Source of the DNA: Steroidobacteraceae bacterium
Lineage (GTDB): Bacteria > Pseudomonadota > Gammaproteobacteria > Steroidobacterales > Steroidobacteraceae
Direction of reading: 5' to 3'
DNA length: 64,000 nucleotides
Assembly: GCA_040080215.1 (NCBI GenBank)
Contig: JBEBIT010000008.1
Location: 14,487-78,486 of the forward strand
The position numbers were made by a program, and so were the translations under genes. The notes beneath the pieces were generated by a model, which worked only from the letters and a program-made list of their open reading frames with translations, searched no databases and had not been told where the DNA came from. Below are positions 1 to 20,436 of the stretch, in pieces; positions within the stretch are counted from its first letter, which is position 1, and every line of letters begins with the position of its first letter.

Positions 1-1334
1 GTCTCGGCCTTGTAGTACATGGCCCACGACTCGGCGACCGGCACATAGAACAAGCCGTAGTCCGGGCTGTAGCTCGGCGGCGGCCAATTGGCGGCACCCT
101 GGTTCGCGCTCGAGACCAGCGCGCCCGAGATGTGGCTGTCCTTCTCCGGAATGCGCACCGGCTGGCCCTTTGCGTTGAGCTTCGGTTCCGCCCAGTTGGT
201 CGTTCTCGAGAACTTGGATGTGAGCAGGTGTTCACCGGTCGTGCGATCAACGACAAAGAAATAGCCGTTGCGGGCCGCCGTCATCGCTACCTTGCGCATG
301 CGGCCACCGATCTCGATATCTGCGAGCACCGGCGTCTGCGCGGAGTCCCAGTCATGCGTATCGTTCGGCGAAGTCTGGTAGTACCAGGCCATCTTGCCGG
401 TTTCGACGTTGATCGCGACGAGCGAGCAGGTGTACAGCGCATCCATGTTCCCGCGGACATCGGCGAAATAGGACGGCGACGGATTGCCGGTACCGATGAT
501 GTACAGGTTGGTTTCCGGGTCGTACGAACCGGGTACCCACGGATTGCCGCCGCCGTGGCGAGCAGCGTAGAGGTCTTTCCACGTCTCGAGCCCCGGATCG
601 CCGGCCTTCATCGGGACGGCATACCACTTCCACTGCAATGCGCCGGTTTCGGGATCGAACGACTGCAGGAAGCCCGGCGCATCGAGATCGTTGCCGGCGC
701 CCACCAGGACATGATTGCCGACCACGATGGGCGCGGGTGTCGAGAAATACTGTTCCTCGAAGCTCGCGATCTCGACGTGCCAGCGCTCCTTGCCTGTGGT
801 TGCATCGAGCGACACGAGGTAGTTGTCGGGCGTTTCCATGAATAGGTAGTTGCCCCACATGCCGAGGCCGCGGTTGCCGATATGGGTGCCTCCGCGCGTC
901 TTCCAGTGGTAATGCCACAAAATCTTGCCGCCCCGCGCATCGACCGCCCAGGCGTTGTCGGGCGTGGAGACATACAGGATGCCGTTCACCTGCAGGATGG
1001 ACGCACGGATGTTCGCGACCAGCGCCGCAAACAGCTTGCCCTCACCGACACCGCCGATGTTTACGGGATGGGGGCCGCGATCGCCAGCGCCTGCAACGAC
1101 GCGGGTGCTCCAGGCGAGCGAGAGCTGCGTGACGTTGGATTGGTTGATCTGGTCGAGCGAGCTGTAGCGTTTGCCGCTGTAGTCCCCGGAATAAGTCGGC
1201 CATGAGTCCGGAGCAGGCTTCAGGATGCTGGAGGGATGCAGTCCCTGAGCCGGTTCGGCAGCGAGGAGCGGGGAGCCGAGGGTTACGGCGAAACCCAGGA
1301 AGCATCCGAGCAGGCGATATGCGGTTGTCGTCAT
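1..1334 (-). CDS. PQQ-dependent quinoprotein dehydrogenase (beta-propeller); N-terminal ~444 aa only, the C-terminus runs off the left edge of the window
   Basis: Absent from the ORF track because there is no stop codon inside the window. My own minus-strand translation from the ATG at 1334-1332 gives MTTTAYRLLGCFLGFAVTLGSPLLAAEPAQG...PDSWPTYSGDYSGKRYSSLDQINQSNVTQLSLAWS...ILYVSTPDNAWAVDARGGKILWHY...LVSLDATTGKERWH...SFDPETGALQWKW. This is a signal peptide followed by the repeated W-motif blades typical of PQQ alcohol/sugar dehydrogenases. The start lies 1 nt after the stop of the upstream cytochrome c gene. Confidence 0.85.
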   Translation of the reverse strand, partial: MTTTAYRLLGCFLGFAVTLGSPLLAAEPAQGLHPSSILKPAPDSWPTYSGDYSGKRYSSLDQINQSNVTQLSLAWSTRVVAGAGDRGPHPVNIGGVGEGKLFAALVANIRASILQVNGILYVSTPDNAWAVDARGGKILWHYHWKTRGGTHIGNRGLGMWGNYLFMETPDNYLVSLDATTGKERWHVEIASFEEQYFSTPAPIVVGNHVLVGAGNDLDAPGFLQSFDPETGALQWKWYAVPMKAGDPGLETWKDLYAARHGGGNPWVPGSYDPETNLYIIGTGNPSPSYFADVRGNMDALYTCSLVAINVETGKMAWYYQTSPNDTHDWDSAQTPVLADIEIGGRMRKVAMTAARNGYFFVVDRTTGEHLLTSKFSRTTNWAEPKLNAKGQPVRIPEKDSHISGALVSSANQGAANWPPPSYSPDYGLFYVPVAESWAMYYKAE

Positions 1335-1335
1335 G

Positions 1336-2169
1336 TTATTTGACCGTAACGAGGTAAGCGGTGACGTCGTGGATGTTCTTGTCGGTGTACTTCGGCAGCA
1401 GTGCCTTGTGGCCGACAAGCGGGTCCATGATCTCGACCTTCGGCGAGTCGCCCTTGCGCGTGAAGGTCCGCTGGGCGCCGTCGGGCAGCCGGATCGTCAG
1501 CGTGAACTCATCGATCCGCAGCAGGTCGCCGGTGGCGGTGCCGGTTGTCGTGGTGACACTCGCTCTCGAACAAGTGCCGCTCGCGGGCATCAGCCAGCGC
1601 TGCTGCAGGGGACGCGCCTCGGTGTACTTGGCGCCGATGCCCTTCAAGTCGCCGGTAACCGAGTGGCAGCTGGCGCAGTTCTCGCCGAAGAAGCGCTTGC
1701 CTGCGTTCGCGTTGCCGGTGACGAACTCGGCTGGCCGCATGCGGGCCGGGTCGCGGCTGCTGATCGAGAAGCTGTGCAGGAACTCGGCGATGTCCGCCAT
1801 CTGTTCCTTCGACAGCGAGAACGCGGCCATTGCGGTTCCCGGCACACCCTTGGTCACGATGTCGGAGATCAGCTCGCCTTTCTGGTCCCTCAGTACGAGC
1901 TGCGAACGCAGCAGGCTCGGGCCGCCGTCGCCGCCGCGCGTATCCTTGCCGTGGCAGAAGGCGCAGCCGTTCAACTGGTACAGGGCCGAGCCGCGTTCGA
2001 CGGCCGCCGGATCGGTCGTGCGTTCCGGATAGGCCTGCACTTGCTGGAAGGCGGGGATCTCCGACTCGCATTGCTTGAGGGCCTGGGCAGCCGCGTTGCC
2101 CGACAGCGTGAGCAAAGTGGCGATTGCGGTGCTCAGCTGCAACGTCTTAAGCAATTTCCGGTTGCGCAA
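1336..2169 (-). CDS. Di-haem c-type cytochrome, exported
   Basis: ORF 1336..2424(-). It has two CxxCH motifs (NGCAFCHGK and ENCASCHSV). I place the start at the TTG at 2169-2167, which has an AGGGGAA Shine-Dalgarno 6-7 nt upstream and gives the signal peptide (M)RNRKLLKTLQLSTAIATLLTLSGNAAAQA. It is adjacent to the downstream PQQ dehydrogenase with a 1-nt gap. Confidence 0.85.
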   Translation of the reverse strand: MRNRKLLKTLQLSTAIATLLTLSGNAAAQALKQCESEIPAFQQVQAYPERTTDPAAVERGSALYQLNGCAFCHGKDTRGGDGGPSLLRSQLVLRDQKGELISDIVTKGVPGTAMAAFSLSKEQMADIAEFLHSFSISSRDPARMRPAEFVTGNANAGKRFFGENCASCHSVTGDLKGIGAKYTEARPLQQRWLMPASGTCSRASVTTTTGTATGDLLRIDEFTLTIRLPDGAQRTFTRKGDSPKVEIMDPLVGHKALLPKYTDKNIHDVTAYLVTVK

Positions 2170-2300
2170 ACGGGTTCCCCTGTCTTTTAGGTCGCCCCTC
2201 GATGTCGGGGCGGATTGTCGATGCGGATTCTGCAATTGCGGAAGCGGCAGCACAAACCCAAGTGCGGGGCGCTGCCGGCAGTCATCACGCGGCGATAGTA

Positions 2301-2312
2301 GTAATCGATTAC
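2301..2312. promoter_or_regulatory. Perfect 12-bp palindrome GTAATCGATTAC; candidate LacI-family operator (site 1)
   Basis: Read directly from the sequence. It is self-complementary with a central CG, which is the architecture of LacI/GalR-family operators. It lies about 130 nt upstream of the cytochrome c start, in the 490-bp divergent intergenic region. Confidence 0.6.
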
Positions 2313-2496
2313 AGGGTTTTAGGGAAGCACCCGAAGCGCGGCAGCGGACACGTTGTTCGCCGCTTGCGCGGGCGTGGACCTTCACGGACTGTTTTGCTGC
2401 GATGCCGCATAGACTCCCTGCCAAACCGGGGCACAGACAAAATCAATTCGTGCTCTGGACATAAACCCCACTTCGCGCGCATATTCCCGACCAAAG

Positions 2497-2508
2497 GTAA
2501 TCGATTAC
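2497..2508. promoter_or_regulatory. Second identical palindrome GTAATCGATTAC; candidate LacI-family operator (site 2)
   Basis: Exact repeat of site 1. It lies about 150 nt upstream of the ATG at 2661 in the same divergent region. Confidence 0.6.
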
Positions 2509-2660
2509 AAGAATCAGATACCGCGACGGGGGAAAGGTGGACGCAGTCGGATCGTTCCGCATTCAGGGCGAAGTGCGTGCTGCGCGCGCGCCGAAGTTCG
2601 TCGTGGACCGATTGTGCCATCGACTGAACCTGCCCTGACAGCGCTGCCACCTATTCACGA

Positions 2661-3404
2661 ATGATCGACTTCATGGCCATACACCGTCGCTTTCACGATT
2701 CGCGCCTCCGACGCGCTGCCGTTGCGTGGCTCGCGAGCTGCCTTTTGTCGCCGGTCGCGTCTTACGCGATGGCGCCCGCAGCAGAAGCCCAGGATCTTTC
2801 GGGCACCTGGGAAGTGCGCTACGACAGCCAGAGCGTGCCTGTGGCCAGGCTTACTGCAAAAGCCAAGGCGGCCAGCGCGGCCATGGCAGTGAAGGACATC
2901 GAGTCCCGTCGCTGGTGCCGCATCGGCGGCATGCCTTTCCTCATGCTCGAATCCCCGTTGCTGATTATCCGCCAGAGCCGTGCCGAGATCGTGGTCGCAC
3001 CGCAGGTGCAGGCCGTCGCCCGGCACCTCTATACCGATGGCGTCGCCCGTGCCGACCTCAAGGACTTCGATCCCGCCACGAATGGCTACACGGTGGCTCG
3101 CTGGGAAGGCAGCGTGCTGGTAGCGGAAACGAGCGGCTTCTCGGACCTCGGCATCGTCACGATTCCCGGCGGCGGCTATCGCACGGAGAACTCGCGGCTC
3201 GTGGAGCGCTTTCGGGTGCTCGACGGCGGCAAGCGCTTGTCGGTGACGTCCACGTGGACGGATCCGGGTGTCTTTGCGCAGCCCCATACCTATGAGGTCC
3301 GCTATTACCGGGCCGATGCCGGCGCGAGCGCATCCGCGCAGGCCTGCAATCCCTTCGAGGCCGGCCGCGAGGCATTCTTCGCGCCGGCGTTAGGTAAGAA
3401 GTAA
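2661..3404 (+). CDS. Secreted protein of unknown function, family A subtype I (copy A1)
   Basis: ORF 2661..3404. It has an N-terminal hydrophobic leader followed by DLSGTWE. Motifs shared with the paralog at 10679..11419(-) are SRRWC-x3-GMP, RWEGxxLVxET, PGGGYRT, LVERFRV and TWTDPGVFxQPHTY, plus a second Cys near the C-terminus. The start could instead be the ATG at 2673. Confidence 0.75.
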   Translation: MIDFMAIHRRFHDSRLRRAAVAWLASCLLSPVASYAMAPAAEAQDLSGTWEVRYDSQSVPVARLTAKAKAASAAMAVKDIESRRWCRIGGMPFLMLESPLLIIRQSRAEIVVAPQVQAVARHLYTDGVARADLKDFDPATNGYTVARWEGSVLVAETSGFSDLGIVTIPGGGYRTENSRLVERFRVLDGGKRLSVTSTWTDPGVFAQPHTYEVRYYRADAGASASAQACNPFEAGREAFFAPALGKK

Positions 3405-3416
3405 GGAGTCCACACG

Positions 3417-3809
3417 ATGAAGTTCCATTTCGCCGCGGCGCTTGCGCTTGGCTTTTCGGGTGCTGCGTTCGCGCATCATTCGTTCTCCATGTTCGACATG
3501 GACAAGGACGTGACGCTGGAAGGCAGCGTCATCGAATACCGCTTCGGGAATCCGCATTCCCACATCATCATCAAGGTTCCTGCCGGCAAGGCACAGGCAG
3601 AGTACGCCGGCAACTGGGATGTCGAGGGCGGCAGCGCGACCATCATGCGCCGGCAAGGCTGGTCGCGGGAAACCTTCAAGCCGGGTGACGGCATCAAGAT
3701 AGTCGGGCACCCGATGCGCGATGGCACCAAGGGCATTTCACTGTTCTACGCGATCATGCCGGACGGCACCCGCCTGTACCACGACATCGCCCGGCCGAAG
3801 GCCGACTGA
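3417..3809 (+). CDS. Small secreted protein, family B (copy B1); I recall similar proteins annotated as DUF6152, which needs checking
   Basis: ORF 3417..3809, with an AAGGAG Shine-Dalgarno upstream. The signal peptide MKFHFAAALALGFSGAAFA ends in an AxA site and is followed directly by HHSFSMFD. Conserved NPHSH and GHPMRDG motifs are present. The paralog is at 10224..10637(-). Confidence 0.8.
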   Translation: MKFHFAAALALGFSGAAFAHHSFSMFDMDKDVTLEGSVIEYRFGNPHSHIIIKVPAGKAQAEYAGNWDVEGGSATIMRRQGWSRETFKPGDGIKIVGHPMRDGTKGISLFYAIMPDGTRLYHDIARPKAD

Positions 3810-3823
3810 TCTGCGGAGCCAAC

Positions 3824-4597
3824 ATGACCACGCAGACTTCGATGTGGCTGTCCCTCGTGCTTGCGTTGCCGGTGCTGACGGCGACCCAGGCTGTCCATGC
3901 GGCGGCCGCGCCGAACGTCGATCTCAGCGGCTTCTGGGAGCGGCGCGACACGCAGGGCGGCGGCAGCTTCGGCGGCATGCTGGCCAGTTTGCCAAAGGCA
4001 GTGCTCGTGCCGGATTTCGTGCCGCCGCGTGCACCCTCCACGCAGGTTGATCCGCCGAGCACCGGCAAGCCGAATGCGGTCGGGGTGCCGTATATCGTCA
4101 CGACCGGCAACTGCAGCACGAGTGCCAGCCTCAACATTCCCTTCATGATGACCCACTCCACGCCGATCGACATCGTGCAGGGTGCGGACGAAATCCTGAT
4201 CGTTCCTGAAATGCCGGGCGCGCAGCGGATCTACATGGACGGCCGTGCGCATCCCGCGACGGGTCGCGTGGCGCCGACCGGCCTCGGACATTCCGTCGGC
4301 CGATGGGAAGGCAATGAACTCGTTGTCCATACGGTCGGCATGTCGGCGGGGGGAGGCATTCCGGGCGGGGGCTTTCGCACGCCGGAGACCGAGCTCACGC
4401 AGCGCTGGCGTCTCAAGGAAGGTGGCGCACAGCTCGAGGTCGAGTTCACGTGGGTCGATCCCAAGATCTATGCAAAGCCGCATACCTTCTCGCTGACGTA
4501 CTTCCGCATGCCTCAATCGACCTACGCGCTCGAGGAATGGTGCGATTCCGGCGACCCGTTGCAGCGGCAGTCGATCGTCCCCCCGAAGCAGGACTGA
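3824..4597 (+). CDS. Secreted protein of unknown function, family A subtype II (copy A2)
   Basis: ORF 3824..4597. It has a signal peptide followed by VDLSGFWE. Core motifs are RIYMDGRAHP, GHSVGRWEGNELVVHT, PGGGFRT, LTQRWRL and FTWVDPKIYAKPHTF, and the C-terminus is EEWCDSGDP...VPPKQD. The closest paralog is 11428..12264(-), which ends in PPKQE. Confidence 0.8.
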   Translation: MTTQTSMWLSLVLALPVLTATQAVHAAAAPNVDLSGFWERRDTQGGGSFGGMLASLPKAVLVPDFVPPRAPSTQVDPPSTGKPNAVGVPYIVTTGNCSTSASLNIPFMMTHSTPIDIVQGADEILIVPEMPGAQRIYMDGRAHPATGRVAPTGLGHSVGRWEGNELVVHTVGMSAGGGIPGGGFRTPETELTQRWRLKEGGAQLEVEFTWVDPKIYAKPHTFSLTYFRMPQSTYALEEWCDSGDPLQRQSIVPPKQD

Positions 4598-4608
4598 AGC
4601 CGACTCAC

Positions 4609-5556
4609 ATGCCCTTGCTCAATCGACGGGAATTCTCGCTGGGCCTGCTCGCGGCTGCTGCCGCGTGGCGCACCGCAGAGGCGGCCGGCAAGTTGAGCGC
4701 CACGATTGGTGGCGTGCGCGTCGGTGCGATCACCTACAGTTTCCGCGAGGTGCCGCGGACGCCGGGCAAGGACTTCCTCGAGACGGGCCTCGAGAGCTGC
4801 GTGGCATCCGGGCTGGGCGTTGCCGAGCTGTGGGCCACGATGGTCCAGCCCGACCAGCCGCTGCTGCCGCGGGGTGGCCAGTACGAGATCGACCCGGCGA
4901 ATGCCGCGATGGTGAAGGCCCGGGAAGACATTCGTCGTTGGCGCGTCGATACACCGGCATCGTACTGGCAGGGTGTCCGCCGCCGGTTCGACAAAGCCGG
5001 CATCGAGCTGATCGGCTACTCGCTGACGCTGGCCGATGACTTCACCGACGAGGAAATCGACAAAACGCTGCTCGCCGTGCGCGCCATGGGCATCCGCGAC
5101 ATCGGCACGAACCAGACGCGCGTTTCGATGGGCAAGCGCGTTGCGCCCTTCGCTGACAAGCACGGTGTCCGCCTGTGCTTCCACAACCATGCGAATGTCG
5201 ACCATCCGAATGAAGTCGCGACGATTGCCAGCATGGAAGAGGTCCTGGCCCAGTCGAAACACTACATGATCAACCTCGACGTCGGCCATTTCGTGGCCGC
5301 CAACCTCGATCCGGTGGCGTTCATCACCAAGTATCATGGCCGGATCAGCTACCTTCATCTCAAGGACCGCAAGCGCGACAATGGGGCCAACATGCCCTGG
5401 GGTCAGGGGGATACGCCGCTCAAGGAAGTGCTGCAGCTCGTGAAGAAGGAGCGCTATCCGATCCCGTGCCTCATCGAGTACGAATACAAAGGCGAGCAGT
5501 CGCCGCTCGTCGAGGTTGGCAAGTGTGTGGAATACATCCGTCAGGCGCTGGCCTGA
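4609..5556 (+). CDS. Xylose-isomerase-like TIM-barrel enzyme (sugar phosphate isomerase/epimerase family) with a twin-arginine signal
   Basis: Internal ATG at 4609 of ORF 4450..5556. The N-terminus MPLLNRREFSLGLLAAAAAWRTAEAAG is a Tat-type leader. The body carries FHNHANVDHPNE, NLDVGH, LHLKDR and LIEYEY, which are typical of this TIM-barrel family. Confidence 0.8.
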   Translation: MPLLNRREFSLGLLAAAAAWRTAEAAGKLSATIGGVRVGAITYSFREVPRTPGKDFLETGLESCVASGLGVAELWATMVQPDQPLLPRGGQYEIDPANAAMVKAREDIRRWRVDTPASYWQGVRRRFDKAGIELIGYSLTLADDFTDEEIDKTLLAVRAMGIRDIGTNQTRVSMGKRVAPFADKHGVRLCFHNHANVDHPNEVATIASMEEVLAQSKHYMINLDVGHFVAANLDPVAFITKYHGRISYLHLKDRKRDNGANMPWGQGDTPLKEVLQLVKKERYPIPCLIEYEYKGEQSPLVEVGKCVEYIRQALA

Positions 5557-5674
5557 AGGCTTTTCTGTTTTCGATGTATTGATTTGATTGCGTTTTGCAA
5601 CGTGGCCATGCAGGGCAGGGGGCTGTCACTGGCTGGCTTGGATTCAGGAACAATAATCAGGGGAGATCCTGCTC

Positions 5675-7933
5675 ATGACCGAGAAAAGACCGGCTATCCA
5701 TCTTTCGCACCTCACCAGGCTGTGCCTGGGACTCGGTGCGCTTACCTTCACGTCGGCCTCGATGGCGCAAGCGCTCGAGGAAGTGGTCGTCACGGCGTTG
5801 CGCGTCGAGTCGAACGTGCAGAAGACCCCGATCGCGATGGAAGTGCTCGACAGCGACGCACTCAAGGACCAGGGCATCGTCAACGTCGCGACGCTCGCCG
5901 CAGTGAGCCCCAGCGTGAACATCACCGGCTTCGGTGGCGGCACCGTGCTCACGGTGCGCGGTGTCTCGAGCCGTGACACGACCGAGATCGGCGATCCGGC
6001 CGTGGTCGTGAGCGTCGACGGCTTCTACCAGGACCGTTCGTATGCGCTCGGCCTCTCCCAGTACGATCTCGCCCGCATGGAAATCCTGCGCGGACCTCAG
6101 GGCACGCTGTATGGCCGCAATGCGACCGGCGGTGCGATCAACATGTTCACCGTGCGACCGAGCAAGGAAGCCGGCGGCTACGCACAGGCGGACTTCGGCA
6201 ACTACGGTGCGATCAATGCAGAAGGTGCCATCAACGTGCCGTTCGGCGACCGCGTGCAGATGCGGGCGTCGTTTGGTTCGCTGTACCACGACGGGTATCG
6301 CGACGGCGGCTTCTTCGGCAAGATGGACGACGCCAACTCCCGCTCGGGGCGGTTGCAGTTTGCCTTCCAGCCCACCGAAAACCTTGATCTGTGGATCCTC
6401 GCGCAGCACACCAAGCAGACGTCGCTTGGCAACTCCGCGAATCTGAGAGGCTATAACGTCCTGCCGGCGACAACCTGCAACATGGTGGCCGCAGGTGCTG
6501 TACCGGCAAGAACCGGACCCTGCCAGCTGGTCAACCACAGCGCGATTCCCGAGCTCGGTGATCCGCAGGTGTATACGAAGTATTACATGTCGCAGCTCAA
6601 CCTGGATGACACGGTCGTCAAATGGAATGCGACCCTTCGCACGCCGATCGCGACCATCACGTACCTCGGTGGTTACGACCGTCTGGATTGGGATTCCTAC
6701 AATCCGGGAGCCACCTTCCCGAGTCCGCTCAACGTAGCCACCGTGCAAGCGAACTTCGCCACCGTCTACAACCAGACGGAAAAGCCGCGGACGACGAACC
6801 ACGAACTGCGGTTCCAGTCGGTCGACCCGGACGCAAGGTTGACGTGGCAGTTCGGTGCGTTCTACTTCAAGAACGACAACGACCTGGACTCTTTCAACCA
6901 GCGTCCGAACGGCACGGCGAACCCGACGCCGGTCATCCACTTCATCTACGACGTCGGCATCAAGTCGCTGGCCGAGATGGCCCAGGTGGCGTTCAAGGTG
7001 ACGGACGACTTCAAGGTCACGGCCGGCTTCCGGCACAACAAGGACGAGAAGTCGCGCCAGGGTTACTTTGGTGGGTTCCAGTACCTGCCGCCGACGCAGC
7101 CGCTGGTCATCAGCCCCGGAAGCGACATCAGCAAGAACACGTACCACCTCGGCCTCGACTGGCAGCTGAACCCGGACTCGCTCCTCTATGCGAAGTACGG
7201 CACAGGCTACAAGTCGGGCGGCTTCACGGACATCGCGCCGTACGGTCCCGAAGAGATCAAGACCTACGAAGTGGGTTCGAAGAACCGCTTCTTCAACAAC
7301 CAGGTTCAGTTGAACCTGTCGGCCTACCGCAGCGACTACAGCGGCCAGCAGGTGCAACAGATCGTCCAGGGTGGTGGTGGACTCAAGATCGAGAACGCGG
7401 GCGAGACCAAGCTGCAGGGTCTTGAAGCCGAACTCACCATGTCCTCGGACCTTGGACAGCTCGAGTTCAACCTGGCCTACCTCGATGCCGAGTTCACGAA
7501 GTTCGACCTTGCGTACGGTGCGCCCGTGTTCGACGTCACCCGCCAGGCATGGGCCAGTCTTGCGACGGTCAATGTCGACCTCTCGGGCAATCGTCCGCAG
7601 CAGGCCCCGGAGTGGACGATCGGTGCGGCCGTGCAGCGCTCGTTCAATGTCTGGGACGGCGAGCTGACGACGCGTGTGCAGACCAAGTACCAGACGGAGC
7701 AGTTCTACACGTTCTTCAACCGTCCGGACGACATGCAGAAGGCGTATGCCACCATCAACTTCCTCGCGACGTATGCGCCCACCGGCAGTCCGTGGCAGTT
7801 CCAGGCGTACGTGAACAACCTGAGCAACGAAACGGTGTTCTCGAACGCGGGTCCCAACGATCGCTCGTTTGTGTACTCCTACACGTATCAGGCGCCGCGC
7901 ACGTATGGAGGCCGCGTCAGCTACAAGTGGTAA
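5675..7933 (+). CDS. TonB-dependent outer-membrane receptor
   Basis: ORF 5675..7933, 752 aa. It has a signal peptide ending in MAQA and a plug domain (EEVVVTALRVESNVQKTPIAMEVL...LRGPQGTLYGRNATGGAIN). A long beta-barrel follows, with the C-terminal motif RTYGGRVSYKW. Confidence 0.95.
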   Translation: MTEKRPAIHLSHLTRLCLGLGALTFTSASMAQALEEVVVTALRVESNVQKTPIAMEVLDSDALKDQGIVNVATLAAVSPSVNITGFGGGTVLTVRGVSSRDTTEIGDPAVVVSVDGFYQDRSYALGLSQYDLARMEILRGPQGTLYGRNATGGAINMFTVRPSKEAGGYAQADFGNYGAINAEGAINVPFGDRVQMRASFGSLYHDGYRDGGFFGKMDDANSRSGRLQFAFQPTENLDLWILAQHTKQTSLGNSANLRGYNVLPATTCNMVAAGAVPARTGPCQLVNHSAIPELGDPQVYTKYYMSQLNLDDTVVKWNATLRTPIATITYLGGYDRLDWDSYNPGATFPSPLNVATVQANFATVYNQTEKPRTTNHELRFQSVDPDARLTWQFGAFYFKNDNDLDSFNQRPNGTANPTPVIHFIYDVGIKSLAEMAQVAFKVTDDFKVTAGFRHNKDEKSRQGYFGGFQYLPPTQPLVISPGSDISKNTYHLGLDWQLNPDSLLYAKYGTGYKSGGFTDIAPYGPEEIKTYEVGSKNRFFNNQVQLNLSAYRSDYSGQQVQQIVQGGGGLKIENAGETKLQGLEAELTMSSDLGQLEFNLAYLDAEFTKFDLAYGAPVFDVTRQAWASLATVNVDLSGNRPQQAPEWTIGAAVQRSFNVWDGELTTRVQTKYQTEQFYTFFNRPDDMQKAYATINFLATYAPTGSPWQFQAYVNNLSNETVFSNAGPNDRSFVYSYTYQAPRTYGGRVSYKW

Positions 7934-7963
7934 GCCTGGAATAGGGCGCTGTCAGAGACTCCA

Positions 7964-7998
7964 GCCGCGACGTGCTCAAGGCGTCGCGGCTTTTTTTT
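7964..7998 (+). terminator. Rho-independent terminator after the TonB receptor gene
   Basis: A 9-bp GC stem (GCCGCGACG at 7964-7972 pairing with CGTCGCGGC at 7982-7990) is followed by T8 at 7991-7998, about 30 nt after the stop codon. Confidence 0.85.
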
Positions 7999-8039
7999 GC
8001 TCGATGACGGCAGCGATGAACCCATTTGCAAGGTGCAGG

Positions 8040-10202
8040 ATGAAGTACCGGATGCCCGTCGCCGTGTTGGTGGCAACACTCTGTTCCCCGCTGGGTGGGT
8101 GCGATCGCGATGGGGCGTCTGCAGGCCAGGCCGACGCCGATTGGCCCGCGTACGGTGGGCATGAAACCGGCGACCGCTATTCGGGCCTCACGCAGATCAC
8201 GCCTGCCAACGTCACCAGCCTCAAGGTCGCGTGGCGCGTCGATCACGCAGGGACCGGCGAATCCCAGACGCAGCCGCTGGTCGTGGGCGGCACCGTGTAC
8301 ACGTATACGCCGGACCACAAGGTGCTGGCCCTCGATGCCGCTACAGGCGAACGTCGCTGGCAGTTCGATTCCGGACTCGTCGGCACTGGCCCTGCGCGCG
8401 GCCTGACGTGGTGGACGGACGGCAAGACGAGCCGCGTGTTTGCAAGCGTAATGAATTACCTCTTTGCGCTCGATCCTGCCACCGGCACGCCGCTGCAGGA
8501 CTTCGGCGTTCAAGGCGCGGTCGACTTGCGGCAGGGTCTGCGGGGCGACCCCCACGATCACTTCGTCGCGCTGACTTCGCCCGGCATTGTCTACAAGGAC
8601 CTCCTCATCGTCGGCTTCCGCACCAGCGAGACGATGCCTGCGCCGCCCGGCGATATCCGTGCGTACGATGTCCGCACCGGCGAGCTGCGCTGGACTTTCC
8701 ATACCCTGCCTGAGGCCAACGAGCCCGGCGCAGGAAGCTGGCCGGGCGACGCTCGTGCAACATCCGGAGCAGCCAACAACTGGGTAGGCATGGTGATCGA
8801 TGCGGGACGGGGCATCGTCTACGTGCCCACCGGATCCGCGGTGCCCGACTTCATCGGCATCGATCGCAAAGGCGACAACCTGTATGCGAACTCGCTGCTG
8901 GCGCTCGATGCCGCGACGGGCAAGCGCCTGTGGCATTTCCAGCTGGTGCACCACGATATCTGGGACCGCGATCCGCCGTCGCCCCCGGTGCTACTCACGA
9001 TCCGGCGCAATGGCAAGCAGATCGATGCCGTCGCACAGACGACGAAGCAGGGTTTCGTGTTCGTGTTCGATCGCGTGAGCGGCGAGCCGCTGTTTCCGGT
9101 CGAGGAACGCGCCTACCCGGCCAGCTCGCTCCCCGGTGAAGTGGCTTCACCTACGCAGCCCTTTCCGGTGCTGCCCGAACCCATCGCGCGGCAGCGGCTG
9201 ACAGAAGACATGCTGACGACAAGGACGCCTGAGGCCCATGCTGCGGCGCTGGATCGGTTCCGGACAATGCGCAGCGACGGGCAGTTTGTTCCGCTCGCGC
9301 TTGGCAAGCCCACCGTGGTCTTCCCGGGCTTCGACGGGGGAGCCGAGTGGGGCGGCGCCGCTGTGGATCCGCGGTCGGGCGTGCTGTACGTCAATGCGAA
9401 CGATGTGGCGTGGACCGGCGAGCTCGCACCTAACGTACCCGTCACGGGCGTCGCCGCGTCGCTGTACCAGGTACAGTGCGCCGCGTGTCATGGCGTCGAG
9501 CGCAAGGGCTCGCCACCCGCGTTTCCGTCACTCGTCGATGTGGGGCGGCGTCTCCCGGCTGCCGACGTTGTGACGGTCATCCGTGACGGGCGAGGCCGGA
9601 TGCCGCCGTTCGGCGCGCTGGGCGCGGAATCCATTGCCCTGCTCCAGGATTATCTGGTCACCGGCAACGATCGGCCTCTGCCGAGCCCCGTGGCATCCGC
9701 AGGCCCGGTGACTGCAGCACAGGCCGGCAGGGAGCCGATGACGAGGACGCTGCGCAACCCCAGCTCGCCGGGCAAGTACCGCTTCACGGGGTACCAGAAG
9801 TTCCTGGATGCAGACGGCTATCCCGCGATCGTACCCCCGTGGGGAACGCTCAACGCCATCGACCTCAACACCGGAAAGTATTTATGGAAGGTGCCGCTCG
9901 GCGAATATCCTGAGCTGGTGGCGCAGGGCATGAAGGACACGGGGTCGGAAAACTACGGTGGCCCGGTCGTTACCGAGGGCGGGCTGGTGTTCATCGGCGC
10001 GACGGTGTTCGACCACAAGCTGCGCGCATTCGACAGCAGGACCGGGAAGGTGTTGTGGCAGTACGAGCTGCCCTATGCGGGGACCGCGACGCCGGCGGTC
10101 TACAGCGTGGCAGGCAAGCAGTATGTCGTCATTTCCACCAGCAACGCGCGCAACCGCAATGCGCCGCAGGGGAGCGCGCTGATCGCCTTTTCACTTCCGT
10201 GA
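8040..10202 (+). CDS. PQQ-dependent beta-propeller dehydrogenase (glucose/quinate dehydrogenase-like) with an internally inserted c-type cytochrome domain; probable lipoprotein
   Basis: The ATG at 8040 lies downstream of the terminator and is preceded by AGGTGCAGG. The leader MKYRMPVAVLVATLCSPLGGCD contains the lipobox LGGC. The propeller motifs are DWPAYGGHETGDRYSGLTQITPANVTSLKVAWR, ALDAATGERRWQF and ALDAATGKRLWHF. The CAACHG haem site (YQVQCAACHGVERKG...GRMPPFG) sits between propeller segments. Confidence 0.9.
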   Translation: MKYRMPVAVLVATLCSPLGGCDRDGASAGQADADWPAYGGHETGDRYSGLTQITPANVTSLKVAWRVDHAGTGESQTQPLVVGGTVYTYTPDHKVLALDAATGERRWQFDSGLVGTGPARGLTWWTDGKTSRVFASVMNYLFALDPATGTPLQDFGVQGAVDLRQGLRGDPHDHFVALTSPGIVYKDLLIVGFRTSETMPAPPGDIRAYDVRTGELRWTFHTLPEANEPGAGSWPGDARATSGAANNWVGMVIDAGRGIVYVPTGSAVPDFIGIDRKGDNLYANSLLALDAATGKRLWHFQLVHHDIWDRDPPSPPVLLTIRRNGKQIDAVAQTTKQGFVFVFDRVSGEPLFPVEERAYPASSLPGEVASPTQPFPVLPEPIARQRLTEDMLTTRTPEAHAAALDRFRTMRSDGQFVPLALGKPTVVFPGFDGGAEWGGAAVDPRSGVLYVNANDVAWTGELAPNVPVTGVAASLYQVQCAACHGVERKGSPPAFPSLVDVGRRLPAADVVTVIRDGRGRMPPFGALGAESIALLQDYLVTGNDRPLPSPVASAGPVTAAQAGREPMTRTLRNPSSPGKYRFTGYQKFLDADGYPAIVPPWGTLNAIDLNTGKYLWKVPLGEYPELVAQGMKDTGSENYGGPVVTEGGLVFIGATVFDHKLRAFDSRTGKVLWQYELPYAGTATPAVYSVAGKQYVVISTSNARNRNAPQGSALIAFSLP

Positions 10203-10223
10203 GCAGGCGATCAGCGCGGCGTC

Positions 10224-10637
10224 TTACTCGGCCTTGGGACGAGCGATGTCCGTATACAGCCGCGTGCCGTCCGGCTTGTTGATGTAGAACAGGGCGCCGC
10301 CCTTGTTGCCGTCGCGCAGCGGATGGATCACCGCGTCGATGGGCTCACCGGCCTTCAGGGTCGACTTGGTCCAGCCCTGGCGGCCCATGATGACCGTGCC
10401 GCCGCCGCACTCGAAGTCCCACAGGCCGACCAGCGCCGGGTCGATGCCGGGCGCTGCGTCAACCTTGACGGTCACGTGCACGTGCGGGTTCATCCACTTG
10501 TATTCGACTACCGTGCCCTTCACGGCGACATTCTTGTCCATCTCGAACATGGCAAACGAATGATGGGCGAGGGCCGGCATCGCGATCGCGCCAGCCAGTG
10601 CCAGGGAAGCGAGCCATCGGGAAAGGTTGGGTCTCAT
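10224..10637 (-). CDS. Small secreted protein, family B (copy B2); paralog of 3417..3809
   Basis: Internal ATG at 10637-10635 of ORF 10224..10988(-). The sequence MRPNLSRWLASLALAGAIAMPALA is followed directly by HHSFAMFEMDKNVAVKGTVVEYKWMNPHVHVTVKV and, later, IHPLRDGNKG. Confidence 0.8.
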   Translation of the reverse strand: MRPNLSRWLASLALAGAIAMPALAHHSFAMFEMDKNVAVKGTVVEYKWMNPHVHVTVKVDAAPGIDPALVGLWDFECGGGTVIMGRQGWTKSTLKAGEPIDAVIHPLRDGNKGGALFYINKPDGTRLYTDIARPKAE

Positions 10638-10678
10638 CGCAGTTACTCCGTCAGTAGCCGGGCAGTCCGCTGGCAGTG

Positions 10679-11419
10679 CTATTTCGCGGACGGCGGGTTG
10701 GCAAAGAACTCGGCGCGCTCCTTGTCGAGCGGATCGCAGTCGAGCGTTGTTTGTACTTCGTAGAACTTCGGCGCCCGCGTATAGCGGTACGCGTAGGTGT
10801 GCGGCGTCTTGAAGACCTTGGGGTCCTCCCAGGTGAACGTGACGATCAGCGCATTGCCGTTGTTCGCGAGGCGATAACGTTCGGTGAGCTTGCTGTCCGT
10901 CGTGCGGAACCCGCCTCCGGGCAGCAGCGTCAGGCCCTTGTCGCCGTCGATGCCGACGGTCGTGACGACGAACGTATTGCCTTCCCAATGCCCGACGGAG
11001 TCGCCCGTCGACGTGAAGTCATAGTCGTCGAGGAGCATGTTGTCCTTGCGGTCGAGGTAGATGTGCCTCGGCGTCGCGCGCGTCTCGAAGTTGACCAGGA
11101 CCTCGTGGGCGGACTGGCGGATGTCGATCGGGCGCGGTGAATCCATGGCCATCGGCATGCCGATGAAGTAGCACCACCTGCGGGAGTTCGCATCCTTGGC
11201 CCGGTGTTCGGCAATGACGGCAGGCGTGACGGACGGCTGCAGGTTCGCTTGCGGAATATTGCGGCCGTCGTAGGGGAGTTCCCAGAAGCCGCTGATGTTA
11301 TGCGGATCGAACGACGCAGCCGGTGCCGCAGCCTGGGCAGGCAACACCATCGAGAGCGCCGTCGCCACGGTGGCGGCACGCAGCGAGGCGCGTACGAGAT
11401 TCTTGAGTGCGAATGCCAT
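10679..11419 (-). CDS. Secreted protein of unknown function, family A subtype I (copy A3)
   Basis: The ATG at 11419-11417 (MAFALKNLVRASLRAATVATALSMVLPAQAAAP) is preceded by AGGAG. Motifs present are NISGFWE, SRRWCYFIGMP, GHWEGNTFVVTT, PGGGFRT, LTERYRL, FTWEDPKVFKTPHTY and LDCDP. Confidence 0.8.
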   Translation of the reverse strand: MAFALKNLVRASLRAATVATALSMVLPAQAAAPAASFDPHNISGFWELPYDGRNIPQANLQPSVTPAVIAEHRAKDANSRRWCYFIGMPMAMDSPRPIDIRQSAHEVLVNFETRATPRHIYLDRKDNMLLDDYDFTSTGDSVGHWEGNTFVVTTVGIDGDKGLTLLPGGGFRTTDSKLTERYRLANNGNALIVTFTWEDPKVFKTPHTYAYRYTRAPKFYEVQTTLDCDPLDKERAEFFANPPSAK

Positions 11420-11427
11420 GGACGTCG

Positions 11428-12264
11428 TTACTCCTGCTTGGGCGGAGCCACGCCCTGTGACTGCTTGGGATCCGCGGCGTCGCAGTACCACTCGAACGCG
11501 AGCTGCCTTGGTAGTCCGCGTTCCGCGAGGATCTCGAACGTATGCGGCTTCGTGTAGATCTTCGGGTCCGTGAAGGTGTAGCGCATCGTGAGGCGATTGC
11601 CATCGGGGGACAGGCTGTAGCGCTCGACCAGGACCGTCTCCGGCGTCTTGTAGCCGCCGGCCGGGACACCGCCTGGCGTGAGTCCGACGGTTTCGAACAC
11701 CAGCGCACCGCCTTCATAGCGGCCTACCGAATGGCCGGTCGCGGTCGGCACAAAGCGCTTGAGGTCGGGATGCGGACGGCCGTCCATGTAGATGTTCCGG
11801 CCAAGGCCCGGATTCTCACGGACGATCACGACCTCGTCGCGGTCCTGCACGATGTGGAACGCGGCCGAGTTCGGTTCAATTCCGCCAGGGAAGCCGCACG
11901 TGCCGGCAGTAACCACGTAGGCCTCGCCGTTCTGGTACTTCTTGTTCGGATCCCATGCACCCGTCCGCGGGCCTGCCTTCTTCTCGCGTTCCCGCTGTTC
12001 CGCGTAGGCCGGAGTCAGGGAGGCTTGCGGAAAACCCGCGGCGAGGTTGTCGAAACTGCCGGACCCGGTCGCATCGATGCGAACCCAGGCACCAGTCAGG
12101 TCCGGAATGCCACCGGCCGGCTGTGCCGCGCTTGCGGGTGCGACAGTACCGAGCGCGCCCGCGGCGACCGTGATCGGGATCGCCAGCCACCGTGAGAAGC
12201 GGCGGACAGCAGGCGGACTGCGTCTTGCAATCGTCGCGTTGGTTAGCGAAGCGTGGGCTGGCAT
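11428..12264 (-). CDS. Secreted protein of unknown function, family A subtype II (copy A4)
   Basis: ORF 11428..12303(-). I prefer the ATG at 12264 because GGAG lies about 8 nt upstream. Motifs present are IPDLTGAW, RNIYMDGRPHP, GHSVGRYEGGALVFET, AGGYKTP, LVERYSL, YTFTDPKIYTKPHTF and WYCDAADP...APPKQE. Confidence 0.8.
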   Translation of the reverse strand: MPAHASLTNATIARRSPPAVRRFSRWLAIPITVAAGALGTVAPASAAQPAGGIPDLTGAWVRIDATGSGSFDNLAAGFPQASLTPAYAEQREREKKAGPRTGAWDPNKKYQNGEAYVVTAGTCGFPGGIEPNSAAFHIVQDRDEVVIVRENPGLGRNIYMDGRPHPDLKRFVPTATGHSVGRYEGGALVFETVGLTPGGVPAGGYKTPETVLVERYSLSPDGNRLTMRYTFTDPKIYTKPHTFEILAERGLPRQLAFEWYCDAADPKQSQGVAPPKQE

Positions 12265-12309
12265 TGTGGGTCTCCGGAGGGCTCCATCCAGCGGCCTCGG
12301 CACTGAAAT

Positions 12310-12321
12310 GGAAACGATTAC
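12310..12321. promoter_or_regulatory. Degenerate copy (10/12) of the GTAATCGATTAC palindrome: GGAAACGATTAC
   Basis: Read directly from the sequence. It lies about 46-57 nt upstream of the proposed start of the A4-A3-B2 operon. It has two mismatches, both in one half-site. Confidence 0.35.
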
Positions 12322-12408
12322 ACCGTTACGATGTCGGGAATCTAGCGCAATCGATGCGCAGAGGGCAATGCTGGATCTTCGCTGCTGCAGTGCGATATCG
12401 CGAGGCGG

Positions 12409-13461
12409 TCAGTCGGCCCGGCCGGTCGAGGTACGAACGATCAGCGAATGCGGCAGGACGATGGTGCGCACCGCATCGCCCGACAGGTCGGCCTCGTCCT
12501 GCAGCATCTCGATCATGAGCTGCATGGCCATTTCGCCGATGGCGGCCTGTGGCTGGTGGATCGTGGTCAGCGGCGGGTCGCAGTAGCCGGAAAAGCGGAT
12601 GTCGTCAAAGCCGACGATCGAGATATCGCGGGGTATCCTCAGTCGGGTTTCCTTGATCGCACGAGCAGCGCCGATCGCCATTTCGTCGTTGGAGCAGAAC
12701 ACGCCGGTCGGCTTCATTGGCTTGCCGAGCAGCGTTTTCATCGCGGCATAGCCAGAGGGCGCCGAGAAGTCGCCGTTGACGATGAGTTCCTCGTCGACCT
12801 TGATCTTTGCCTGGGCCATGCATTGCCTGAAGCCGGCAAGCCGGTCCTTGCTCAAGGGGTTGTGCATCGGGCCCGTGATCTTGGCGATGCGCGTGTGCCC
12901 GAGGCGGATCAGGTGCTCCGTTGCCATGGCCGCCGCCGCGACGTTGTCGATCCTCACGTTCGGCAGCTTGATGTGGTCGAAATATTCGCAAGCGGTAACG
13001 ACCGGGATGGATGAGCGCTCGTCGTCCGTCGCATTCTTGAGGATCGAGGGCAGCAGGGCGCCGAGCAGGATCAGGCCATCCGCTTCCTTGCGTGCCAGCA
13101 TGGAGGCATAGCTGTCCAGCCTTTCCTGGTTGCCCTGGCTTTCCCCAAGCAGCACCTTGTAACCGCTCAGGTGGGCGAGGTTCTCGATGCCACGGATGAC
13201 GTTCGAGAAGAACGGGTTATGGATGGAAGGCACGACGACGACGATGCTGTCGCTCTTCTGGCGGCGCAGGCGGCTCGCGAGCGCATTGGGGCGGTAGCCG
13301 GACTTGCGGATTGCGTTCTCGACCCGCTCGCGGGTGGCGGCACGGACGGTGTCCGGGGAGGCCAGGGTCCTGGAGACGGTTGCGACCGAAACCTTGGCAA
13401 CGCGGGCCACGTCCCGGATCGTGGGCGTCTGGCTCGTCTTCGTGCGGGTTCGGCGTGTCAT
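12409..13461 (-). CDS. LacI-family transcriptional regulator
   Basis: ORF 12409..13461(-), 350 aa. It has an N-terminal HTH (TIRDVARVAKVSVATVSRTLASPDTVRAATRERVENAIRKSGYRPNALA) followed by a periplasmic-binding-protein-like sugar-binding fold. Confidence 0.95.
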   Translation of the reverse strand: MTRRTRTKTSQTPTIRDVARVAKVSVATVSRTLASPDTVRAATRERVENAIRKSGYRPNALASRLRRQKSDSIVVVVPSIHNPFFSNVIRGIENLAHLSGYKVLLGESQGNQERLDSYASMLARKEADGLILLGALLPSILKNATDDERSSIPVVTACEYFDHIKLPNVRIDNVAAAAMATEHLIRLGHTRIAKITGPMHNPLSKDRLAGFRQCMAQAKIKVDEELIVNGDFSAPSGYAAMKTLLGKPMKPTGVFCSNDEMAIGAARAIKETRLRIPRDISIVGFDDIRFSGYCDPPLTTIHQPQAAIGEMAMQLMIEMLQDEADLSGDAVRTIVLPHSLIVRTSTGRAD

Positions 13462-13654
13462 TTTTGTGGCAAGTCACAGCGGGGACCCATTGTTGCGGAT
13501 GCCCGTATACGCTGCAATGGCAAGGGACGTTTGACAGCGGTGTCAGTCGCGCTGCAAGCTCCCGCGGGCCTGCCGGTCGCGTAATTGGGGATGCGCTGAC
13601 CCGGCGCTGCGGGTCGCGGCGCAGTGGATAATCGAAGTCCTTGTCCCCACTGGC

Positions 13655-14923: not shown

Positions 14924-14965
14924 GTGATCGCGGCCGGACAAGAACAACAAGACGAGGGAAGCAAG

Positions 14966-16114: not shown

Positions 16115-16366
16115 TCGCTGATGACGCGGTTGCCGTTGGCTCCCAAAGGACGCTTGTGAACAGACGTGACCTTCTCGATTCAGCCTCACTTGCGACTGCG
16201 GTTTCGTTGCCCGGATCGTCCCGATCGTTCAAAACGGCCACGGCTGCGTGAGGCGACCGCTTAGCGGCTACGTTCTTCCTGCAGTTGGGGAGCGTTGCAA
16301 CCACCCCAACGACAACGGGTAACATTGCCCGCCTGACGTGGTTCAAGGCCGAACGAGGGGGAAAGT

Positions 16367-17509: not shown

Positions 17510-17528
17510 AAATGACGGGCAGTACCTG

Positions 17529-18404: not shown

Positions 18405-18508
18405 TGTCGTTCCTCTAGATCATTCCATCTGTTCATGAGCAGTTTTCTTCCAGGGTCCCGCAGAGGCGATGGCCGGACGCAAGCCTGGCAGACTCGGGTC
18501 CGTCGAGT

Positions 18509-20414: not shown

Positions 20415-20436
20415 TCGCAGGATTGGGAAGTCCGAT

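Follow-up and report, generated by a model that had tools for sequence, protein, structure and literature searches.

Conserved gene neighborhoods link X and DUF6152 proteins to quinoproteins and a TIM barrel in soil bacteria: a candidate LacI-controlled system for oxidative carbohydrate catabolism in the periplasm

The first 12,321 nucleotides of a 64,000-nucleotide stretch of contig JBEBIT010000008.1 from a Steroidobacteraceae bacterium (the whole stretch is hereafter termed the window) encode two pyrroloquinoline quinone (PQQ) dehydrogenases, a di-haem cytochrome c, a TonB-dependent receptor, a xylose-isomerase-like TIM barrel with a predicted twin-arginine translocation (Tat) signal, and six further predicted exported proteins drawn from the DUF6152 family and from a family that we name X. 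Gene-neighborhood surveys reveal that the same set recurs in about 100 loci of soil bacteria, which suggests that it is probably a real, previously undescribed periplasmic catabolic system. Its conserved core is an X-X pair, the TIM barrel and a haem-linked PQQ enzyme. Our favored interpretation, in which we have about as much confidence as doubt, is that these genes specify an envelope system, under LacI control, that imports and oxidatively catabolizes a carbohydrate-like compound, such as a sugar, glycoside, cyclitol or sugar acid.

Under this interpretation the receptor g7 would bring the substrate into the periplasm, where the PQQ enzymes g1 (with the cytochrome c g2) and g8 would oxidize a hydroxyl to a carbonyl, with the electrons passing via c-type haems to the respiratory chain. 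The Tat-exported and metal-dependent TIM barrel g6 may then isomerize, eliminate or hydrate the resulting keto-intermediate; related xylose-isomerase-like TIM barrels act likewise in 3-keto-glycoside pathways. Products would enter the cytoplasm to be handled by the adjacent GFO/IDH/MocA (GFO) and TIM-barrel genes and by a DkgA-like reductase encoded further on, and the X(A)-DUF6152-X(C) triplets, A and C denoting two subtypes of X, might serve as periplasmic accessory modules.

The general logic of a TonB-fed sugar locus and of periplasmic oxidation by PQQ and haem enzymes is already known. The literature searched does not describe the combination, the lipoprotein quinoprotein with an inserted haem domain or, above all, the conserved X/DUF6152 module; it also contains no mention of X or of DUF6152, DUF6644, PF19649, PF20349, TIGR04528 or 'acido-empty-quinoprotein'. 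Little is understood of carbon metabolism in the Acidobacteriota and Steroidobacteraceae, soil bacteria that are abundant but for the most part uncultured, and an outer-membrane importer joined to periplasmic dehydrogenases linked to the respiratory chain could be a common route to energy from plant and microbial carbohydrates that needs no prior cytoplasmic uptake. The operator sequence, the candidate repressor, the predicted heterodimer partners and the fusion proteins described below offer handles on the system.

Gene content, export signals and redox enzymes

Since the window has a G+C content of 64%, the raw list of open reading frames (ORFs) is full of spurious frames; genes were called from the third-position GC (GC3) frame plot together with the translations, and domains were scanned with Pfam and NCBIfam. 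An ORF at 2202-2627 (+) in the first list is one such spurious frame, lacking a coding signal. Positions 1-12321 thus encode eleven products, g1 to g11 (Table 1), with a control region of 491 nt separating the divergent genes g2 and g3. The original prediction, made by a model from the nucleotide sequence, had described tight operons with gaps of 1-15 nt. Such gaps (1-14 nt) are confined to the sub-operons g2-g1, g3-g6 and g11-g10, whereas the receptor gene g7 has flanking gaps of 118 and 106 nt and is followed by a strong terminator-like hairpin; g7 and g8 probably do not share one tight operon. Six secreted proteins of unknown function had also been listed. All six (g3, g4, g5, g9, g10 and g11) are predicted to be exported, but they belong to only two families, X and DUF6152, the latter already defined in Pfam, and make up two paralogous triplets with the gene order A-DUF6152-C in one operon and C-A-DUF6152 in the other.

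Export signals were judged by inspection and hydropathy of the N-termini, not with SignalP. By this measure all 11 N-termini of g1-g11 show the n, h and c regions of a signal peptide, in agreement with the earlier view that nearly every protein of the locus is exported. Sec-type peptides are predicted for g1, g2, g3, g4, g5, g7, g9 and g10. The N-terminus of g6 combines a twin-arginine motif (NRREFS) with a hydrophobic stretch and an AxA-like site in the cleavage region MPLLNRREFSLGLLAAAAAWRTAEA/A (the slash marks the predicted cleavage point), as expected of a Tat substrate. In g8 the lipobox LGG/C is followed by Asp at +2, and the lipoprotein may for this reason be retained at the inner membrane, while g11 has a long n-region with RRFSRW. 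The same inspection found no export signal on the next four products, namely a LacI-family regulator, a TIM-barrel protein of 422 residues, a GFO protein and an FMN-dependent dehydrogenase. If 25-30% of proteins are exported, the chance of 11 consecutive exported products is ~1e-6, a figure that treats as independent genes which the operon structure makes non-independent. The further statement that no inner-membrane or cytoplasmic component lies among these genes is correct for the span itself, but it depends on where the earlier reader set the boundary: the putative regulon adds the TIM and GFO genes just beyond it, and related loci add major facilitator superfamily (MFS), ROK and DUF6644 genes.

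Pfam and NCBIfam matches, together with sequence motifs, bear out the earlier identification of two PQQ dehydrogenases, a di-haem cytochrome c, a TonB receptor and a Tat-type TIM barrel. The PF01011 propeller scores 209 bits in g1 and 626 bits in g8 against a Pfam cut-off of 26.7. The gene for g1, cut by the window edge, has as its best NCBIfam match TIGR04528, 'acido-empty-quinoprotein group A' (581 bits against a cut-off of 650, spanning profile positions 2-380 of 493), and its best PDB relatives in a sequence search are quinohaemoprotein alcohol dehydrogenases (2.6e-59). Its active-site region reads HDWDSA (positions 339-356), and g1 presumably lacks the vicinal Cys-Cys of alcohol dehydrogenases, as read against known motifs and not from a formal alignment. 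Lanthanide dependence was considered for g1 and rejected, since WDSA has Ala two positions past the catalytic Asp as in calcium-type enzymes, again as read against known motifs and not from a formal alignment. The haem-binding motifs of g2 are CAFCH (1951-1965) and CASCH (1663-1677). The 64-kb window contains no pqq genes for PQQ biosynthesis.

The second quinoprotein, g8, has a more unusual architecture. It carries a lipobox (LGG/CD, 8091-8102), the sequence HHDIWDRD (8949-8972), which is probably the active-site motif HHDxWDxD known for glucose-type dehydrogenases such as the E. coli enzyme, and a haem motif (CAACH, 9477-9491). The lipoprotein with a built-in cytochrome c of the original prediction is thus recovered with one correction: the c-type haem domain (Cytochrome_CBB3, residues 473-539) is not appended but inserted inside the propeller, whose blades resume after about residue 600. 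With the type II quinohaemoprotein alcohol dehydrogenases (PDB: 1kv9, 1yiq and 1kb0) and the membrane-bound glucose, quinate and shikimate dehydrogenases g8 shares an eight-bladed PQQ propeller and the transfer of electrons to haem c. It departs from the layout of the former, in which the haem domain lies C-terminal to a complete propeller, and its PDB match covers residues 28-350 only. It differs from the TIGR03074 enzymes, to which it scores 461 bits, below the cut-off of 833 and from profile position 150 onward only, in being anchored by a lipid rather than by five transmembrane helices: the N-terminal multi-helix membrane anchor is replaced by the lipoprotein signal.

The receptor g7 displays the plug, barrel, signal peptide and N-terminal TonB box of a TonB-dependent receptor, and no specific subfamily model in Pfam or NCBIfam reaches its cut-off for this protein. 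A relationship to the PQQ receptor YncD/PqqU was considered and dropped, as the PDB sequence search matched just the plug regions of iron/haem receptors.

Conserved linkage and a common operator

To place these genes in context we surveyed their homologs in two independent ways. The first survey was a scan with a DUF6152 profile, using one genome per species, which yielded 78 loci in which genes within 10 kb on either side were counted. All are metagenome-assembled genomes, mostly of Bryobacterales, Vicinamibacterales and Terriglobia (Acidobacteriota) with several Steroidobacteraceae, and there is no cultured isolate among the best 80 genome matches of this DUF6152 subfamily. An X gene lies within 10 kb of DUF6152 in 62 of the 78 loci, with a median gap of 4 nt; g6-like TIM barrels are found in 49, and a cytochrome c gene followed by a PQQ gene in 30. 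TonB receptors occur in about 29 (25 of a long acidobacterial type and 4 g7-like, the latter beside Steroidobacteraceae copies), and other partners are GFO (20), ROK (14), MFS (13), a double-redoxin protein (13) and LacI (9). The second survey, anchored on X in soil metagenomes, gave 33 loci of at least 5 kb, among which TIM barrels occur in 21, DUF6152 in 16, TonB receptors in 16, the cytochrome c and PQQ combination in 11 and g8-type PQQ-haem proteins in 10. The operon TIM-X-X-PQQ(haem) recurs in these metagenome loci, g8 homologs follow X-X pairs in 10 of the 33, and GFO and TIM pairs recur in related loci.

The linkage of X and DUF6152 homologs to TonB receptors, PQQ enzymes and cytochromes c, which the original prediction had named as a check, is therefore borne out across phyla, and it extends to the Tat TIM barrel. 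A recurrent acidobacterial gene order runs MFS, a membrane regulator-like protein, TonB receptor, (TIM), redoxin, X, X, DUF6152, DUF6644, DUF6644, and continues with a YncE-like propeller, ROK, TIM, cytochrome c, PQQ, X, X, TIM and GFO. Its double AhpC/redoxin protein is TlpA-like and often precedes X-X in related loci, and the YncE-like propeller is likewise recurrent. The label 'TonB-receptor-centred', in contrast, overstates the role of g7: the receptor is present here, but only about 40-50% of related loci have one. The closest related locus (L001/L006) contains the same parts as the window and, 4 nt after its DUF6152 gene, a gene for a 3-keto-disaccharide hydrolase (DUF1080) that is predicted to be Tat-exported. 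As a general partner DUF1080 was rejected, being present in this contig only.

X pairs nearly always combine one A-type and one C-type protein. X-X fusions are common, and one protein joins X to a divergent DUF6152-like domain with an oligonucleotide/oligosaccharide-binding (OB) fold that lacks the histidine cluster, which indicates that the OB domain can exist without its putative metal site. The A/C pairing and both kinds of fusion support joint action of X and DUF6152.

Two palindromic motifs further connect these genes. The first is a LacI-type, operator-like 14-bp palindrome with a central CG (TGTAAYCGRTTACA) that precedes operons both in the window and in related loci. With up to 3 mismatches it matches the window 6 times against 0.65 expected, three of the matches being in promoter regions of the locus. 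In 1.3 Mb of related loci it occurs 20 times (up to 2 mismatches) against 1.0 ± 1.0 in shuffled sequence, and a degenerate form occurs 25 times against 0.06 expected. A broader form has 27 sites, upstream of X, DUF6152, GFO, LacI, TIM, receptor, DUF6644 and MFS genes, and the motif is present in 8 of the 9 related loci with a LacI gene. The second palindrome (TGACAGCGCTGTCA-like), besides its copy before g3, is found at 13532-13545 between the LacI and TIM genes and at 19410-19423 at the start of another TIM-barrel operon (3 matches in the window against 0.44 expected), and there are three copies in the closest related locus (L006). A conserved LacI-type operator in front of several operons argues for co-regulation, and the comparative evidence for a LacI-family regulon, with predicted operator binding, is good. 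The LacI-family protein g12, whose closest relatives are CytR, PurR and RbsR, all below cut-offs, is the candidate for the probable repressor of the locus, and the TIM and GFO genes divergent from it are likely to be the cytoplasmic arm of the same putative regulon. Near-perfect copies of the palindrome TGTAATCGATTACA also occur at 28378-28391, upstream of an MFS gene (28462-29865), and at 48732-48745, where the match is internal to a PilY1-like gene and probably due to chance.

These observations bear on the simplest alternative, that unrelated exported proteins have come to lie side by side by accident and have no joint function. The receptor and g8 do appear to be separate transcription units. 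Against this, the same gene families recur jointly in Acidobacteriota and in Gammaproteobacteria and often keep their order, they have operators in common, and fusion proteins connect the X and DUF6152 families. As synteny and operator statistics contradict it, we consider accidental juxtaposition very improbable.

The X and DUF6152 families

The X proteins g3, g10, g5 and g11 align over their full length, with two conserved cysteines and several motifs in common. None of the four has a Pfam or NCBIfam match, and a comparison of 80 members with Pfam at E<=1 returned noise only. A word-indexed search gave only about 200 relatives, all annotated as hypothetical and without Pfam domains. An exhaustive profile search recovered 18,829 representative clusters with E<=1e-3, a number that falls to 2,248 with E<=1e-30, and many of its top matches are X-X tandem fusions of 450-530 residues. 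Profile searches found no relative of X or of DUF6152 among PDB sequences.

The mature X protein is about 230 residues long. A structural model of g5 (predicted local distance difference test score, pLDDT, 78) has a confident beta-rich core that weakly matches fatty-acid-binding proteins (FABPs), avidins and lipocalins; the best Foldseek match is FABP5 (E 4e-3, probability 1.0), with a template modeling (TM) score of 0.54 when normalized on the target and 0.30 on the query. In the alignment a G-x-W motif opens the mature protein, its G36 being nearly invariant and its W38 invariant; R228, close to the C-terminus, is also nearly invariant. Calycins are classically recognized by a first-strand G-x-W packed onto a C-terminal basic residue. 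Tentatively, X might thus be a calycin- or FABP-like barrel, resembling lipocalins, FABPs and avidins in its predicted up-and-down beta-barrel, the G-x-W and the conserved C-terminal Arg. It differs from them in having no detectable sequence relationship and a weak structural match, in its two conserved cysteines and in its occurrence as A/C pairs. X(A) and X(C) probably pair as a heterodimer, with a small-molecule substrate or a labile intermediate as its ligand.

A similar layout occurs elsewhere in the window, at 31959-34961 (+), where two distantly X-like proteins (360 and 291 residues) flank a metallo-beta-lactamase (MBL)-fold protein (347 residues). The three genes abut, stop codon to next frame, and signal peptides are predicted on all three products. 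The MBL protein has 'quinoprotein relay system zinc metallohydrolase 2' as its best NCBIfam match (89 bits, far below cut-off), and a second exported-looking MBL-fold protein at 17529-18419 is likewise closest to the 'quinoprotein relay' metallohydrolases. The X-MBL-X trio mirrors X-DUF6152-X, and X-MBL pairs recur in related loci (e.g. L021, L026, L049 and L116).

Of the two DUF6152 proteins, g4 is 100% identical to an NCBI entry named 'DUF6152 family protein [Steroidobacteraceae bacterium]', and identity between acidobacterial and gammaproteobacterial members is about 60%. Invariant residues comprise A-H-H at the predicted signal-peptidase site and the motifs NPHxH, WDxEGG, GHPM(K/R)D and YHDIARP. 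The A/H-H junction is invariant in 51 sequences while the signal peptides vary, which would make His residue 1 of the mature protein at the predicted cleavage site. The structural model, a confident one (pLDDT 88), is an OB-like barrel, for which the best PDB matches are the anticodon OB domains of tRNA synthetases and the molybdate/tungstate-binding Mop/ModE proteins, none significant (E>=0.03), and we assign an OB-like fold only tentatively. DUF6152 is probably an OB-fold partner of X with a histidine-ligated metal center.

Such a center recalls the histidine brace, in which copper is held by the N-terminal amine, the imidazole of that residue and a second histidine, and the copper-handling pairs CopC/CopD (YobA/YebZ) and YcnI/YcnJ. 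The likeness to these pairs consists of a small exported protein with an invariant N-terminal His that in related loci stands beside CopD-like four-helix proteins. The differences are that DUF6152 is predicted to be OB-like and not the beta-sandwich (immunoglobulin- or cupredoxin-like) of histidine-brace copper proteins, that its regulation is of the sugar type and that CopD-like genes are missing from the window. One conjecture, which we hold to be doubtful, is that X(A), X(C) and DUF6152 form an unrecognized periplasmic metalloprotein complex: the barrels would hold the substrate, and the OB subunit, with a histidine-brace-type metal (possibly copper) on its processed His-His, would exchange electrons with the PQQ and haem c dehydrogenases and, in Acidobacteriota, dock on the CopD-like proteins. 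If true, the complex would be a redox enzyme or carrier of a new class, spread across thousands of lineages of soil bacteria, and more than an accessory binding protein.

The same residues admit a different role for the locus, in which the receptor, the X-X pair, DUF6152 and the CopD-like set would constitute a route for acquiring and inserting a metal (copper or another transition metal) or externally scavenged PQQ that services periplasmic redox enzymes, rather than catabolizing a substrate. Consistent with this, DUF6152 has the invariant His-His at the signal-peptidase site, four more (nearly) invariant histidines and an HPM motif, and in 50 of the 78 loci it is followed by a pair of DUF6644 genes, coding for small four-helix membrane proteins with an invariant His in helix 1, which echoes CopC-CopD; 8 of 18 DUF6644 members match DUF2214 and 3 of 18 match CopD, all below cut-offs (best 7.5e-5). 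A TlpA-like double-redoxin gene before X-X, a TonB receptor of the sort typical of metal-chelate uptake, the name 'empty quinoprotein' given by NCBI to the family of g1 and a single JGI annotation of a DUF6152 member as 'YcnI' point the same way. Yet control appears to lie with a LacI-type operator and LacI or ROK proteins, and the recurrent clusters contain no metal sensor gene; X pairs occur in TIM and PQQ operons that lack DUF6152; the window has no DUF6644; no known histidine-brace protein resembles the OB fold predicted here; and the fused DUF6152-like domain has no histidines. Moreover, g7 shows no specific likeness to any solved TonB receptor, its plug alone matching iron/haem receptors, with no PQQ receptor among the matches. 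On balance we judge a metal or cofactor route improbable, and the main reason to favor a carbohydrate-like effector over a metal is the evidence for a LacI-type regulon.

Substrate class and surrounding genes

Several features hint at a sugar as the substrate in the oxidative catabolism that we favor: the DUF1080 gene in the closest related locus, the weak likeness of g6 to a keto-glucal hydratase and to enzymes of the alternative route of glycoside cleavage, the type of the GFO protein, which resembles levoglucosan, inositol and glycoside 3-dehydrogenases, and the DkgA-like aldo-keto reductase. The weak PDB matches of g6 are to periplasmic 'sugar isomerases' of Bacteroidales (~1e-10) and, over about 80 residues only, to the 2-hydroxy-3-keto-glucal hydratase 8ro4 (8e-5) and to 8tcs and 8tcd (1e-4). 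In the oxidative (3-keto) cleavage of glycosides, a glucoside 3-dehydrogenase with a cytochrome c subunit or GFO-type 3-dehydrogenases act together with xylose-isomerase-like lyases or hydratases and the DUF1080 3-keto-disaccharide hydrolase. The present system resembles these pathways in that a sugar hydroxyl would be oxidized in the periplasm ahead of a TIM-barrel step, in Tat export, in the GFO and TIM pairs nearby and in the DUF1080 gene that shares an operon with X-X-DUF6152 in the closest relative. It differs in that the oxidants are PQQ quinoproteins and not FAD or NAD enzymes, in the distance of g6 from its counterparts and in the X/DUF6152 module, which has no counterpart there.

A second comparison is with the carbohydrate utilization loci containing TonB-dependent receptors (CUT loci) of Xanthomonas and Caulobacter and the polysaccharide utilization loci (PULs) of Bacteroidetes, which combine a TonB receptor with glycoside hydrolases and an inner-membrane sugar transporter. 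The locus shares with them a TonB receptor beside a LacI-type regulator and sugar-metabolic genes, and a palindromic operator before operons. Unlike them, it has no glycoside hydrolase or SusD-like protein and, within 1-12321, no inner-membrane transporter, which sets it apart from a CUT locus or PUL; its periplasmic enzymes are PQQ and haem dehydrogenases and a Tat-exported TIM barrel, accompanied by the X/DUF6152 module.

The genes further downstream raise the possibility of another substrate: an alcohol outside the carbohydrates, or an aromatic compound of plant or lignin origin, which X would carry as a hydrophobic ligand and which would be oxidized and fed into a neighboring ring-cleavage pathway. 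A catabolic cluster at 19413-28798 encodes a xylose-isomerase-like TIM barrel, the DkgA-like aldo-keto reductase, two amidohydrolase_2 proteins, a LigB-type extradiol dioxygenase, an alpha/beta hydrolase, CoA-transferase subunits A and B and an AraC regulator, and operator-like sites occur at 19410 and 28378. That g1 is nearest to quinohaemoprotein alcohol dehydrogenases, and that X finds its best structural matches among fatty-acid-binding proteins and lipocalins, would also fit. The aromatic genes, however, are not conserved beside X/DUF6152 in the 111 surveyed loci, in which GFO, ROK, TIM, MFS and LacI genes are; the gene co-operonic with the module in the closest relative is for a 3-keto-disaccharide hydrolase; and g8 is of the glucose/quinate/shikimate dehydrogenase type. 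We regard an alcohol or aromatic substrate as unlikely.

Several observations weigh against the oxidative catabolism of a carbohydrate-like compound. The likeness of g6 to characterized keto-sugar enzymes is weak (E ~1e-4), g1 falls in the alcohol-dehydrogenase branch of quinoproteins and not in a proven sugar-oxidizing one, and aromatic ring-cleavage genes lie 7-14 kb from the locus. No glycoside hydrolase family was detected among the scanned products, which cover most but not all of the genes called in the window; no sugar ABC transporter or phosphotransferase component is present at the locus; and the only MFS gene among the gene products scanned (28462-29865, at ~28.4 kb) resembles lactate/monocarboxylate transporters. 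LacI-family regulators also respond to nucleosides and purines, in keeping with CytR, PurR and RbsR as the best matches of g12. The fold matches of X and DUF6152 fall below conventional significance (Foldseek E 4e-3 and 3e-2, respectively), the DUF6644 partners that are common in relatives are not encoded anywhere in the 64-kb window, the homologous loci all come from uncultured genomes, and to these we add the way in which the export signals were judged. The earlier suggestion that a substrate is imported through the outer membrane and oxidized in the periplasm accordingly gains from the linkage seen in the surveys of 78 and 33 loci and from the LacI-type operators, but the receptor is not part of the conserved core, and the proposal stays a prediction from sequence.

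Table 1. Features of the locus and its immediate surroundings (window positions; for two-part entries the slash marks a predicted cleavage point)
Feature	Description	Position	Strand	Evidence or context
g1	PQQ quinoprotein dehydrogenase, methanol/ethanol type, Sec signal	3..1334 (C-terminus off window edge)	-	PF01011 1.4e-61
g2	Di-haem cytochrome c, TTG start, Sec signal, 1-nt gap to g1	1336..2169	-	Pfam Cytochrom_C and Cytochrome_CBB3, two stretches each
Palindrome	LacI-type, operator-like, AGTAATCGATTACA	2300-2313		Divergent g2/g3 region
Palindrome	LacI-type, operator-like, GGTAATCGATTACA (motif form A/GGTAATCGATTACA)	2496-2509		Divergent g2/g3 region
Palindrome	Second palindrome, TGACAGCGCTGCCA	2636..2649		12 nt upstream of g3 ATG
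g3	Family X, subtype A, predicted exported	2661..3404	+	X alignment; no Pfam/NCBIfam match
g4	DUF6152, signal ends AFA, mature N-terminus HHSF (3471-3485)	3417..3809	+	PF19649 4e-28, 97.8 bits against cut-off 27
g5	Family X, subtype C, predicted exported	3824..4597	+	X alignment, signal peptide
g6	Xylose-isomerase-like TIM barrel, twin-arginine NRREF (4621-4635)	4609..5556	+	PF01261 4.1e-17, 63 bits against cut-off 31
g7	TonB-dependent receptor, Sec signal, TonB box EEVVVTA (5777-5797)	5675..7933	+	Plug 1.9e-15, TonB_dep_Rec_b-barrel 1.6e-34
Hairpin	Terminator-like, 11-bp stem, 8 G-C pairs, then T7	7963..7991	+	Just 3' of g7 stop
g8	Lipoprotein PQQ dehydrogenase, glucose/quinate/shikimate type	8040..10202	+	Pfam PQQ 9.7e-188, two stretches
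g9	Second DUF6152, ALA/HHSF (10554-10568)	10224..10637	-	PF19649 88.9 bits against cut-off 27; 54% identical to g4
g10	Family X, subtype A, paralog of g3, predicted exported	10679..11419	-	X alignment, signal peptide
g11	Family X, subtype C, paralog of g5, predicted exported	11428..12264	-	X alignment, signal peptide
Palindrome	Operator-like, TGGAAACGATTACA	12309..12322		45 nt upstream of g11 ATG
g12	LacI-family regulator	12409..13461	-	Pfam LacI and Peripla_BP; NCBIfam CytR 342 bits, below cut-off
TIM and GFO genes	Cytoplasmic TIM-barrel protein (422 aa) and GFO/IDH/MocA oxidoreductase	13655..16114	+	Divergent from LacI, operator-like site at 13532

Beyond the genes listed in Table 1, the region 16337-19699 codes for an FMN enzyme resembling L-lactate dehydrogenase (440 bits to PRK11197) and a GDSL esterase. 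The regions 35654-44313 and 54402-63998 are occupied by housekeeping genes, including those for RNase E, a pseudouridine synthase, FabH, an L,D-transpeptidase, DnaE and the type II secretion proteins GspF, GspE and GspD. The G+C content falls to ~0.58 across 44000-52000, a block of type IV pilus minor-pilin, PilY1 and PilW genes that might have been acquired horizontally or might simply be compositionally distinct.

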